DNA from: Patescibacteria group bacterium
GTDB taxonomy: Bacteria > Patescibacteriota > Minisyncoccia > UBA6257 > UBA11618
Direction of reading: 5' to 3'
Assembly: GCA_043822345.1 (NCBI GenBank)
Contig: JBDRBW010000009.1
Location: 1 to 58,468 of the forward strand
Length of the DNA: 58,468 bases
This document shows positions 2,297-40,777 of this stretch, piece by piece. The translations under genes were made by a program, and so were the position numbers. Numbering within the stretch: the stretch's first letter is position 1; each line of letters begins with the position of its first letter. The notes under the pieces were generated by a model. It searched no databases. It was given only the letters and a program-made list of their open reading frames with translations, and had not been told where the DNA came from.

Positions 2297-2336
2297 TTTT
2301 TAAAGAGAAATTATTGGGGTAATTAAATAATTAAAA

Positions 2337-2655
2337 GAAAAGCGAATAAAATGTGTTTTTATTAGACTAAAGGCGAAGCGCTTACTTAGCCAACTAACGA
2401 ACGAAAAGAAGATTTCTTTAGAAAAACAAGCTGTTTGAGTCCCAAAAAAGGCAACTATAATCACGGCCGTGATTATAGTTGCCTTTTTTGGTTGAGTTCT
2501 TGTTTTTCTTACTCTATGAGGATAGTGAGAAAATAAATAAAACTTGTTTTATTTATTTTTGAACGACGAAGTTGAGCATCTGAAATATTCTTTGAGTGAG
2601 TTGGGTTGGCTTAGTAATAAAGCGGTCTAATAAAAACACATTTTATTCGCTTTTC
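2337..2655. repeat. large composite hairpin element, family D copy 1 (candidate structured RNA in the fusA 3' region)
   Basis: A perfect 31-bp outer stem (2337-2367 / 2625-2655) encloses sequence blocks shared with 24985-25205. Confidence 0.7.
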
Positions 2656-2662
2656 TTTCTCC

Positions 2663-4771
2663 TTACTTTTTCCTTCCCTCAATAATTTCCAGAGCCACAT
2701 TCACTGGCACCTGATCGTAATGATGAAATTCCATACTGAAAGTGCCGCGGCCTTGGGTAATAGAACGTAGTTTAGTGGCGTAGCCAAAAAGCTCAGCCAG
2801 TGGCACAAGAGCGTCAATAATCTTGATACCAGCCCGATCATCCATCTTTTCAATCTGGCCCCGCTTAGAGTTAAGATCGCCGGTCACATCGCCCAGAAAC
2901 ACTTCTGGTACAATAACCTGCACCGCCATAACCGGTTCTAGTAAAACCGGCTTACACCTCTTGGCACCCTCCTGAAAAGCGATTGATCCAGCTATCTTAA
3001 AGGCGGCTTCCGAGGAGTCCACTTCATGGAACGAGCCGTCATACAAAGTTACCTTAACATCAACTATCGGATAATGAGCAACAACGCCCTTCCCCAACGC
3101 TTCTTTGACGCCTTTTTCTACCGGCGAAATGTATTCTTTGGGAATAGTACCTCCCCTAATAGCGTCAACAAATTCAAAGCCAGCGCCCTTCTCTTGGGGC
3201 TCAATTTCTAACCAAACATGGCCGTACTGGCCGCGGCCACCAGATTGGCGGATATACTTACCCTCGGACTTAGCGGAGGTGGTAACCGTCTCCCGATAGG
3301 CCACCTGCGGCCGGCCAACGCTGGCCTCAACATTAAACTCCCGCTTCATCCGCTCAACAATCACCTCTAAATGCAGTTCACCCATACCAGAGATAATGGT
3401 TTCGCCGGTCTCAATGTCTCCGCTAACTCTAAAGGTTGGATCCTCTTCCGCCAAACGGTGTAAGGCAATGCCCATTTTTTCTTGATCGTCCTTAGTTTTA
3501 GGTTCAACTCGAATAGAGATAACCGGCTCGGGAAATACAATTTTTTCCAAAATAATTGGGTGATCAGGATCGCTAAGCGTGTCGCCGGTGGTGGTGTCTT
3601 TCATTCCCACTAATCCACCAATTTCACCAGTATAGATTTCGTCTACATCTTCGCGGTGGTTGGCGTGCATACGCAAAATTCGTCCCACCCGTTCCTTTTG
3701 CCCTTTGGAAACATTTAAAATATAACTGCCTTTTTTAAGCGAACCGGAATAGACCCGGAAGTAAGTTAACGAGCCGACGAAAGGATCGGCCGCCACTTTG
3801 AAAGCTAACGCGGAAAAAGGAGCGTCATCTTTAGCGGCGCGCTCCAGCTCCCCTTCAGTTTTTGGATCAATGCCTTTAGTAGGCGGCAGATCAGCTGGTG
3901 ACGGCAAGTAATCAACCACCGCATCCAAAACCAACTGAACACCCTTGTTTTTAAGAGCGGAGCCGGTAAAAACAGGCACTAACTTTACTTCTATTACCGC
4001 CTTGCGCAAAACTCGCTTTAAGTCGCCAGCGGCAATTTCCTTGCCTTCCAAAAAATCGCTCATTAATCCATCGTCATGTTCAACGATTTTTTCCACCAAC
4101 TCGGCGCGCCTTTTTTCCACTTCTTCTTTAAGGTCGGCGGGAATGTCGTCGCTTGCCTCCACAACCTCGCCTAATTTACCGCCAAAACGGTAAACCTTTC
4201 TGGTTAACAAATCAACCAATCCCTCAAAATTGGATTCTGTACCGATGGGTATCTGCATAGCGACAGCATCGGCCGTTAGCCGTTCTCTGATGGATTGCAA
4301 GCTGTGATTAAAACTGGCGCCGGTTCGGTCTAATTTATTAATAAAACAGATGCGTGGCACTTTGTATTCGTCGGCATAGCGCCAATTGGTCTCCGATTGC
4401 GGTTCAACACCAGCGACGCCATCAAAAACTACTACCGCGCCATCAAGGACACGCATGGAGCGTTTGACTTCAACGGTGAAATCAATGTGGCCGGGAGTAT
4501 CAATAATGTTAATGCGATGCTCTTGTTCCTTATTGCCTTTAGCATAAGTTGGTGTCCAAAAGCAGGTGGTGGCCGCCGAAGTGATGGTAATCCCCCGCTC
4601 CTGCTCCTGCTCCATCCAGTCCATTACCGCCGTCCCCTCGTGCACCTCGCCAATCTTGTAAGAAATGCCGGTATAAAAAAGCACCCGCTCGGTAACCGTG
4701 GTTTTACCGGCGTCAATATGGGCGATAATTCCTATATCACGGACTTTTTCTATAGGATACTTTCTAGACAT
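2663..4771 (-). CDS. fusA: elongation factor G
   Basis: [17 protein letters not shown] and NKLD GTPase motifs. Full-length EF-G-like 702 aa, downstream of rpsG. Confidence 0.98.
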
Positions 4772-7655: not shown

Positions 7656-7806
7656 AATAGATGGCGCAGTAATTGTTCCGAGAAAGACGGCTCGGCTCGC
7701 TCCAGCGGCGAGCCGTCCTTGATCTCAGCGAGTTTTCCTCGCTACGCTCGGAACCAAGCAAACTCGCTTCCGATACACTTTTCGGAACAACTCTGCGCCA
7801 TCTATT
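7656..7806. repeat. hairpin element family C, copy 1
   Basis: Outer inverted repeat aatagatggcgcag / ctgcgccatctatt. The inner conserved block accaagcaaactcgc.tccga.aca is shared with 40625-40777. Confidence 0.7.
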
Positions 7807-11614: not shown

Positions 11615-11675
11615 GTAGGTGTAAGGTAGCACATTGAATACGGTTCAAACTAACTCTTTTTAGAGGAGAAGTAAG

Positions 11676-11969
11676 ATGCGTCAAGCAACTCAAGTGGAGT
11701 GGAATGAATGGAGGCAGAAGGCACACCGACTGAATACAGCGTGGCTCGTTATGGTGTTCGTGGGGGTAGCTGTAATACCTCAAGCATTTCCATTTCAACA
11801 GGAACTGAACGGCTACCTGCACTTCTGGAATGATAATCCGCTCAGATTGGCACTTAGCGTGATGGGATTCATTCTGGTTGTTGGAGGTTTGGTGGTCAAT
11901 CGCAGGTTTTTCCATTACATTCGGATTAGACCTTGCGATGAACCAGCAAAAGAAAACTTAACCGCGTAA
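11676..11969 (+). CDS. hypothetical membrane protein
   Basis: 97-aa ORF after GAGGAGAAG. Two hydrophobic helices. It has its own promoter and terminator. Confidence 0.55.
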   Translation: MRQATQVEWNEWRQKAHRLNTAWLVMVFVGVAVIPQAFPFQQELNGYLHFWNDNPLRLALSVMGFILVVGGLVVNRRFFHYIRIRPCDEPAKENLTA

Positions 11970-11994
11970 ACCGTGGTTTCCGAGAGCTTGAGAA

Positions 11995-12025
11995 GCTCCA
12001 AATCGAATATGATTTGGAGCTTTTT
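11995..12025 (+). terminator. intrinsic terminator
   Basis: Stem gctccaaatc-gaatat-gatttggagc plus TTTTT. Confidence 0.7.
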
Positions 12026-17559: not shown

Positions 17560-19431
17560 TTATTTTTTGTCCTTATCTTTAACATCGCCTCGGGCAAAAA
17601 TGCTCGCCACGTATTGCAAAACATCACTAGCCGATTCTTCATCGTAACCATAGTCCCTTATCAGTCGCGCCTTCACCACGTCAATTTTTTCTTGAGTTTC
17701 GGTGTCAACTGTATGGGAAACAATGGAAGTCATCTTGATACTGTCTTTACCATCCTCAAAAAGCTTCATCTCTAATGCCTTTTGCAAACGCTCATTCTTT
17801 CTAAAATCAAACTTTTGGCCAGATAATGCTTGCGCGCCGATAAAGTTCATTAACTCCCCACGAAATGCGTCTTTGCGACTTTCCGGAATATCAATCTTCT
17901 CTTCAATAGAGCGCATCAATTGCTCATCCGGCTCATCGTCTGCGCCGGTAAATTTATTTTTTACCTTTTCTTTTTGGGTATAGGCCCGCACATTATCAAC
18001 ATAATTGCCCGCCAACCGAGCCATTGCCTGTTCGTCGGCGGAAATCGCCCGCTGAACCTCTTTTTTCACCATATCCGTGTACTCTTCTTTCACGGCGGCA
18101 ATCAAAGCCACAAAATCCTTTTTCTGGGCATCACTGGTAATCAAACTATACCTGTCCAAACCTAGTTCCAATTCATTAAGCACCATAAAGGGATTCAGAG
18201 AATGAGCATCGGCGTTAACCGTCAAGGCATCGGAAATCCTATCCTGAACATAACGGGGAGAAATACCATCCATACCTTCGCCTTTGGCTTCTTTTCGCAT
18301 TTCCTCAACTTTGTCGGTGGTGAAGCCGGGTAATGTCTGCCCATTGTATAACTTCAATTTCTGCATTGGAGACAATTGGGGGTCGGTAGGTTTTTGTAAG
18401 CGTGTTAGGACTGCCCACATCGCCGCCGTTTCCAGAGTATGGGGAGCGACATGCTTACCAGTTTTCTCGGTGGTATAATTTTTTTCATAAATTTTCATCT
18501 CTTGCGCTAAGCAGGTGTTATAAGGAACGTCCACCTTAACGGTTCGATCTTGAAGGGCCTGCATAAATTCATTTTGCGCCAATTTTTTAAATTCTGGCGG
18601 ATTAGTATGGCCAGTAATTACCAAATCAATATCTGTTTGAGAAAACTTTTTGGGTTTAATCTTGTGTTCTTGGGAAGCTCCCAACAAATCGTACAAGAAC
18701 GCCACATCTAGCTTGAGCACCTCAATAAACTCAATAATGCCACGATTAGCAACTTGAAATTCACCGTCAAAGTTGAAAGCGCGTGGATCAGAATCCCTGC
18801 CAAATTCCACGATGCGGCGATAATTCATATCGCCGGTCAGTTCGGTGGAGTCCTGGTTTTTTTCATCTTTAGGTTGAAAAGTGCCGATGCCTACCCGATC
18901 TTGTTCGGATAACAGCAACCGATAAACTTGCGTTTCCTCGGTAATTAAGCGGGCGAAATCACCCTCATATTTTTCCAATAACCGTTGAAATACCGATCGG
19001 CAAGCCGGGCAAAGCTCACCGTTCACCGTTATTTTTCCAACAAGTCCCAGTGAGCTCAAAAACTCCGCGCGCATTTCCAGTGGAATTAAATGAAGTGGTT
19101 CTTCGCGCATCGGGCAATCAACCCACAAGCTGTCTTCTAACCGCGCCGCCCGCTGTTCCGTACCGTAATAGGCCTCTCTTTTCCAACGAAAAGAATAAAG
19201 ACAACCTTCATTAATTCGCGAATAATGCTCTAATCCTCGTTTCAACAAACGCACAATAGTGCTTTTAGCGCTACCTACCGGGCCATGCAGTAACAAAACT
19301 CGCTTCTCTGCGCCAAAGCCCTTACTGGCCGCCCTTAATACTCGCATCAGATTTGCCAAAGGCAATTCAATGCCATACACCGCATCTTCAACGCCATCAG
19401 TGGGTTCGCAGAAGAAGCGATAAGTTATCAC
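17560..19431 (-). CDS. prkA: PrkA/YeaG serine protein kinase, main (C-terminal) segment
   Basis: Walker [10 protein letters not shown]. The PrkA-like sequence runs throughout. GTG start at 19431. Confidence 0.9.
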
Positions 19432-24820: not shown

Positions 24821-24928
24821 TTTTTAATAATATATTTTCTAAATTATTTTTTCAAGAAAAAGATTCTCGTAATCGCACACGACTATCCAAAGAACCATCC
24901 CGTGACTAAGTTAAAAGTCTTATAAAAT

Positions 24929-24956
24929 TAAACGGCTCATAGGGGTGAGCCGTTTA
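24929..24956. terminator. AAACGG..CCGTTT hairpin (shared family)
   Basis: taaacggctca-tagggg-tgagccgttta, identical in core to 10176-10201. Confidence 0.6.
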
Positions 24957-24984
24957 ATTATTTACCTTATTTTACTAACTTCTA

Positions 24985-25205
24985 GAGAGAAAACCCCAAT
25001 CACTTTTCAATTCAACAGACTAAAGGCGAAGCGCCTTACTTAGCGAATTGACGAGATGAGGATAAATTTCTCTAGAAAAACAAGCTGTTTGAGTTCCAAT
25101 CTTTGATTGGGCGAGTTCTTGTTTTTCTTAGAAATTTATTTGAAGCGAGGAAAATGAGCTTAGTAATAAAGCGGTCTGTTGAATGAAAAGTGATTGGGTT
25201 TTCTC
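24985..25205. repeat. large composite hairpin element, family D copy 2 (candidate structured RNA in the groEL 3' region)
   Basis: An imperfect outer stem of about 30 bp (24985-25020 / 25174-25205). It shares blocks with 2337-2655: agactaaaggcgaagcgc.ttacttagc, gaaaaacaagctgtttgagt, gagttcttgtttttctta and gcttagtaataaagcggtct. Confidence 0.7.
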
Positions 25206-25209
25206 AACC

Positions 25210-26871
<1,662 letters not shown>

Positions 26872-26976: not shown

Positions 26977-27267
26977 TTATTCTAAAATTGCTAATATTTC
27001 CGACTCTTCGGCGACCAAATATTTCTTCTCATCCAATTCCACCTCATCCGGTCCGTATTTTTTAAACAGCACCATATCGCCAACTTTTACCGACATTGGC
27101 ATTAATTCGCCTTTATCATTCATTTTGCCCGGTCCAACCGCCACCACCTTGCCCTTCACCGGTCTTTCTTTGTCGGCAGTATCCGGTAAAACAATCCCCG
27201 ATTTGGTCATTTTTTCTTCTTCGACTGCTTCTATAAATAAATGGTTTGATAATGGTTTGATGTTCAT
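26977..27267 (-). CDS. groS: co-chaperonin GroES
   Basis: 96 aa with a typical GroES sequence (mobile loop, VGDMVLF). Confidence 0.97.
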   Translation of the reverse strand: MNIKPLSNHLFIEAVEEEKMTKSGIVLPDTADKERPVKGKVVAVGPGKMNDKGELMPMSVKVGDMVLFKKYGPDEVELDEKKYLVAEESEILAILE

Positions 27268-40624: not shown

Positions 40625-40777
40625 CGAAGCGGCTCCGAAGTGGCCTTCAGAAACCGCGGTCCGATTTTTCCAGCGAAAATCGGCCGCTTGGCTCTCGGCG
40701 AGTTTCCTTCGGCAAGCTCAGGACCAAGCAAACTCGCCTCCGAGACATTTCTTCAGACCACATTCGGAGCCACTTCG
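40625..40777. repeat. hairpin element family C, copy 2
   Basis: Outer inverted repeat cgaagcggctccgaagtgg / ccacattcggagccacttcg. The inner conserved block is shared with 7656-7806. Confidence 0.7.

Follow-up and report, generated by a model that had tools for sequence, protein, structure and literature searches.

We found that the sequence between the groEL stop codon and the terminator-like hairpin beyond it harbors one copy of a hairpin-forming element, which is repeated at the 3' end of fusA in the same window (the whole stretch of DNA analyzed, 58,468 nt of a Patescibacteria group bacterium) and recurs in diverged versions in groundwater DNA. These copies make up a family, the element is absent from the corresponding sites of relatives, its helices display compensatory changes and its two strands are unequal in their capacity to pair. 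We predict it to be a member of a small family of non-coding fold-back repeats of ~220 nt. The reading we favor, to which we give a probability of about 45%, is that of a lineage-restricted fold-back repeat that would have inserted 4 nt from stop codons, with a rod structure of one strand (plus) likely to be under selection and G·A blocks stabilizing it; the figure is held at this level because we infer both the mechanism of mobility and the chemistry of the folded strand. As it stands, the element is a modest, lineage-restricted repeat, and is neither a regulator of groEL or fusA shared with relatives nor a kink-turn RNA. Its tandem G·A steps are real and favor the plus strand, but are not a recognized protein-binding RNA motif.

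Location, anatomy and distribution of the element

The earlier note had described the 219-nt groEL-linked copy (copy 2) as the second instance of a composite hairpin, situated between the groEL stop codon and a terminator hairpin. Both points hold: copies 1 and 2 have identical blocks of 17-22 nt in common, and the terminator-like hairpin lies where it was placed (Table 1). The spacer of 5 nt to the stop codon needs correction to 4 nt, with the outer stem ending at 25205 and the stop codon at 25210-25212. A spacer of the same 4 nt separates the outer stem of copy 1 from the fusA stop codon, and on the gene strand both copies are flanked by GTAAGG, made up of the TAA stop and its neighboring G and GG (25206-25213 and 2659-2666). 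This constant offset may reflect an insertion-site preference, as judged from the only two copies with known flanks (n = 2).

Table 1. Positions in the window of the two copies of the fold-back element, their parts and the adjoining genes
Feature	Position	Strand	Remark
Copy 2, fold-back element	24987..25205	+	Covariance model R1 score 206 bits
Outer stem P1, 5' arm, copy 2	24987..25021	+	Partner 25173-25205; 33 pairs, two 1-nt bulges
Outer stem P1, 3' arm, copy 2	25173..25205	+	Ends 4 nt from groEL stop codon
Side hairpin of three-way junction, copy 2	25024..25036	+	GCGAAGC at 25026-25032; identical in copy 1, copy 2 and V3
5'-arm halves of three tandem G·A steps, copy 2	25045..25059	+	25045-46, 25053-54, 25058-59
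3'-arm halves of three tandem G·A steps, copy 2	25142..25157	+	25142-43, 25147-48, 25156-57
Conserved helix AGAAAAACAAG/CUUGUUUUUCU, copy 2	25074..25128	+	Encloses variable apical stem 25095-25111
Copy 1, fold-back element	2334..2658	+	4 nt from fusA stop; two nested palindromic inserts (~2446-2493, ~2511-2580)
groEL	25210..26868	-	Stop codon 25210-25212
groES	26977-27267	-	Listed with groEL
Intrinsic-terminator-like hairpin	24926..24959	not assigned	Downstream of element in groEL sense
fusA (EF-G)	2663..4771	-	Orthologs in relatives with EF-G Pfam domains

The predicted plus-strand folds of both copies are far outside chance expectation, with energies of -89.5 to -91 kcal/mol for copy 2 (z = -9.1 against dinucleotide shuffles) and -135.8 to -136.5 kcal/mol for copy 1 (z = -14.4, likewise). 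Both of the conserved 20-22-nt blocks occur exactly twice in the window, where none is expected. Each copy would form a rod-like hairpin with a conserved core between variable, near-perfect outer and apical helices. The outer stem (P1) spans 32-35 bp, perfect or nearly so, and its similarity between copies 1 and 2 is no better than that of shuffled sequence (p = 0.69). The core is made up of a three-way junction bearing the GCGAAGC side hairpin, a mismatch region rich in purines and a helix conserved in sequence; the alignment of the two copies also features a short helix, ACUUAGC/GCUUAGU, with a conserved U·U. In both copies the mismatch region between the conserved blocks measures 26 nt (5' arm) and 27 nt (3' arm). 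Each copy has an apical stem of its own (e.g., 7 bp for copy 2 versus 25 bp for copy 1). The outer and apical helices vary, yet their pairing is almost perfect.

The nested palindromic inserts of copy 1 (2446-2493 and 2511-2580) are missing in metagenome contigs that have a short, canonical apical stem in their place; the second insert (or a closely related sequence) is found by itself in other contexts too, and its 3' arm is similar to the canonical ATTTATTTGAAG arm of copy 2. Several candidate functional features were rejected: matches of the outer-stem arms to the rest of the window, which might have suggested guides, reach 11 nt at most, and CsrA-binding GGA motifs, a short ORF (ATG at 25155) and internal promoters are each not conserved between copies 1 and 2.

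Beyond the window, the element sequence recurs in four groundwater (aquifer) DNA runs (X1-X4), in which, besides the contigs of the window itself, many short contigs match the core only and then run into different outer and apical stems; at least six distinct copies, as variants of the core, are present in these runs. The repeat family seems to be limited to a single groundwater community. No record matches the window's groEL protein exactly; its closest relatives are 76-80% identical, and searches with BLAST and a covariance model found the element after groEL in none of five related lineages, which display a plain terminator or unrelated sequence there, and after fusA in neither of the two whose locus reaches that gene. 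One of the related lineages (L208) has csrA (17666-17908) 190 nt downstream of fusA, at the place of the window's hairpin element, and other, unrelated long hairpins in its groEL 3' region (11660-12025). Against Rfam, three tRNAs alone pass the gathering threshold in the window, and in permissive scans both copies match nothing but generic hairpins, with scores far short of it. Scans for the exact blocks in IMG/VR, JGI metagenome contigs and GTDB genomes gave chance matches only, including 18-mers in Desulfobacterales, Prevotellaceae and Pedobacter; these matches have no second block, lie mostly in coding-looking sequence and show no covariance-model match. A blastn search of GenBank phages yielded nothing significant, and a protein search with the translated frame of the element, aimed at spurious gene calls on other copies, yielded no candidates.

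Tandem G·A steps and compensatory change

The four coordinate claims of the earlier note are correct, and the minimum-free-energy fold of the plus strand reproduces the facing of G·A steps across the two arms. In copy 2, CGAG at 25052-25055 lies opposite CGAG at 25146-25149 as C25052-G25149, G25053·A25148, A25054·G25147 and G25055-C25146. In copy 1, ACGAACGAAA (2397-2406) lies opposite TTGAGTGAGT (2592-2601), with Watson-Crick pairing interrupted by two tandem G·A/A·G steps (2399-2400/2598-2599 and 2403-2404/2594-2595). The pattern is real and more regular than first described: copy 2 displays not one but three tandem steps (25045-46/25156-57, 25053-54/25147-48 and 25058-59/25142-43), and every step in both copies, including one in the nested copy-1 hairpin, takes the form of 5'-YGAR-3' facing 5'-YGAR-3'. 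All of them are symmetric 2x2 loops inside a helix with pairs on both flanks. The central step has the same position in copies 1 and 2, and its inner closing pair covaries, being A-U in the former and G-C in the latter.

It had been proposed that these are conserved internal loops, a view that would fall if homologous copies did not keep the facing GA steps. As a whole this view is not supported: for each step, another member of the family has Watson-Crick pairing there, wholly or in part, and some of what would refute the view was therefore observed. The central step is kept in four of the five copies with pairable arms, namely copy 1, copy 2, V5 and L2/R3, the last of which joins arms from separate contigs assumed to belong together. 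It is not kept intact in V3 (one contig in each of two runs), whose central step reads C-G, G-C, G·A, A-U, leaving a single G·A, and whose third step has become Watson-Crick (G-C/C-G) by the paired changes 25059A>C with 25143A>C and 25057T>C with 25144A>G. The first step is Watson-Crick (C-G/A-U) in copy 1. The variant arms were rebuilt from per-contig difference tables rather than read directly, and short de Bruijn contigs of this kind may be chimeric.

In the three-sequence alignment, 13 pairs are changed on both sides, whereas shuffles give 5.1±1.8 such pairs and slid controls no more than 4. Together, the comparison of variant arms and these double-sided changes indicate that the helices of the element are held by compensatory change, and that G·A steps, though frequent, can be exchanged for Watson-Crick pairs. 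One contig from runs X3/X4 follows the copy 2 sequence up to 25188 and then switches to another outer-stem arm that pairs with the V4 5' arm; it is probably a chimera that de Bruijn assembly produced at the repeat, and hence arm pairings drawn from short contigs are to be taken with caution.

Strand preference and competing readings

The plus strand folds better by ~10 kcal/mol in each of three copies, with -89.5 versus -78.3 kcal/mol for copy 2, -135.8 versus -125.7 kcal/mol for copy 1 and -76.5 versus -66.7 kcal/mol for V3; with DNA parameters the gap between the strands is 1-7 kcal/mol. There are 6 G·U pairs on the plus strand versus 0-2 on the minus strand. The suggestion of the earlier note that the G·A steps favor the plus strand, antisense to groEL and fusA, thus agrees with the strand comparison. 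The mismatches of the plus strand are G·A, G·U and U·U and their minus-strand equivalents C·U, A·C and A·A, and the GCGAAGC heptamer is found on the plus strand only. A second hairpin family in the window (7656-7806 and 40625-40777), which likewise combines a conserved core with a variable outer stem, has the opposite polarity, its minus (mRNA-sense) strand being better by 16-17 kcal/mol. Hence, the plus-strand preference of the element does not stem from a general composition bias.

As the non-Watson-Crick positions would be of stable kinds on the plus strand (tandem sheared G·A or "CGAG blocks", G·U/G·T and U·U) and are C·U, A·C and A·A on the minus strand, we posit that the G·A steps serve as exchangeable stabilizing blocks of a one-strand rod rather than as a fixed protein-recognition motif. 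The structure would be kept in just one of the strands, the plus strand, and the element, having settled between stop codon and terminator at both fusA and groEL, would have spread as mobile DNA via a plus-strand single-stranded hairpin intermediate. Counting against mobile DNA, no transposase, nuclease or other partner gene adjoins either copy among the neighbors scanned (a sodium:solute symporter, groES, a winged-helix regulator, a hydrolase and several orphan ORFs), no direct repeat flanks copy 1 or copy 2 as a target-site duplication, and the four groundwater runs contain no empty-site joint. Counting against single-stranded DNA of plus polarity, GC skew and gene orientation suggest that the leading strand is templated by the plus strand, a role in which DNA is not usually exposed in single-stranded form.

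The better fold and higher G·U content of the plus strand would also suit a structured non-coding RNA family transcribed from that strand, lying antisense to groEL and fusA at their 3' ends and having its G·A blocks and junction bound by protein. The compensatory changes would fit such an RNA, as would a sequence-conserved core with variable helices, an organization shared by many RNA families. We nevertheless consider it unlikely: no promoter-like site was found on the plus strand near or ahead of either copy, and copy 2 is immediately preceded on this strand by a terminator-like hairpin. The region is contained in no RNA sequencing run, the matching runs being DNA, and no Rfam family matches it. 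Further, Watson-Crick pairs can replace the G·A steps, and the near-perfect outer stems, given their length, resemble templated DNA palindromes rather than drifting RNA helices.

Sitting between stop codon and terminator, the element is very probably co-transcribed on the minus strand with its host gene. A minus-strand RNA could accordingly work as the 3' UTR of the groESL and fusA mRNAs, either as a hairpin blocking 3' exonucleases or as one cut by RNase III, and the plus bias would then be inherited from the origin of the element. The minus strand of copy 2 still folds strongly (-78.3 to -79.5 kcal/mol, z = -8.4), and a U-rich tract follows copy 1 on this strand. We hold such a function to be doubtful, however, as the conserved mismatches there are of the least stable kinds (C·U and A·C), the GCGAAGC motif is lost and relatives manage without any such element.

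A more far-reaching version of the mobile-DNA reading, which we view as rather improbable, takes the working form to be a rod-like single strand of plus polarity built from DNA-type stability motifs (GCGAAGC and CGAG-type sheared G·A blocks), which would move or replicate as a nuclease- and SSB-resistant ssDNA hairpin targeting the first bases past stop codons, and would be a hitherto undescribed type of mobile DNA. A guide RNA similar to those of TIGR-Tas or to the IS110 bridge RNA, with variable palindromic stems flanking conserved box motifs, is essentially refuted by the anatomy: TIGR stem-loop arrays are indeed found in Patescibacteria and have stems that vary yet are consistently palindromic (PMC12045711), but the element comes as single units with small loops, not as a tandem array with 8-12-nt spacer loops, and no gene for a Nop-domain protein or DEDD recombinase lies nearby.

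Should the strand-specific design of the fold-back repeat be real, it would constitute a natural case of non-canonical G·A blocks and a mini-hairpin being selected in a genome, and would offer a handle on the build-up of hairpin repeats at gene ends in the ultra-small bacteria of the Patescibacteria.

Relation to known motifs and repeats

In kink-turns, a 3-nt bulge separates the Watson-Crick C stem from the tandem G·A/A·G pairs, which are conserved among homologs, and the loop E or sarcin-ricin motif is marked by AGUA facing GAA with a bulged G. The element resembles both in having tandem G·A/A·G pairs that adjoin a Watson-Crick helix, but its steps are not fixed in position across copies. 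The earlier assignment to the kink-turn or loop-E class is accordingly not sustained: the loops are symmetric, no step has a 3-nt bulge beside it (the nearest bulge is one G, at 25150, on the wrong side), and the tandem G·A pairs vary among copies (step 1 in copy 1; the central step and step 3 in V3). An AGUA/GAA core is likewise missing, the sole AGUA (25162-25165) being Watson-Crick paired with UACU at 25037-25040.

Pyrimidine-GA-purine tetranucleotides that face each other form sheared G·A "CGAG blocks" in DNA hairpins, as determined by NMR (PMC10085684), and GCGAAGC is an extraordinarily stable "mini-hairpin DNA" motif found at single-strand priming sites (PMC13037366). The two CGAGs of the element face each other exactly as in the former, with all other steps being pyrimidine-GA-purine, and the exact heptamer of the latter caps its conserved side hairpin. 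These motifs are known from oligonucleotides, phage and plasmid priming sites and a human promoter (PMC10085684; PMC13037366), with no described link to a bacterial chromosomal repeat, and in the element the folding strand may be DNA or RNA.

The bacterial fold-back intergenic repeats, such as the MITE-like elements, ERIC/IRU, Correia and RUP (reviewed in PMC3184786), share several features with the element: they are non-coding, 100-300 nt long, have the potential to form long hairpins and exist in multiple diverged copies. Like them, it is found between convergent signals at gene 3' ends, is probably co-transcribed with the host gene and has relatives that lack it at the same site. In keeping with MITE-like elements, its diverged copies occupy unrelated sites, with none at the orthologous sites of relatives. 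It differs from these repeats in that the core is conserved and the termini are not, so that it displays neither conserved terminal inverted repeats nor a target-site duplication, and in combining a low copy number with a strongly strand-specific pattern of mismatches.
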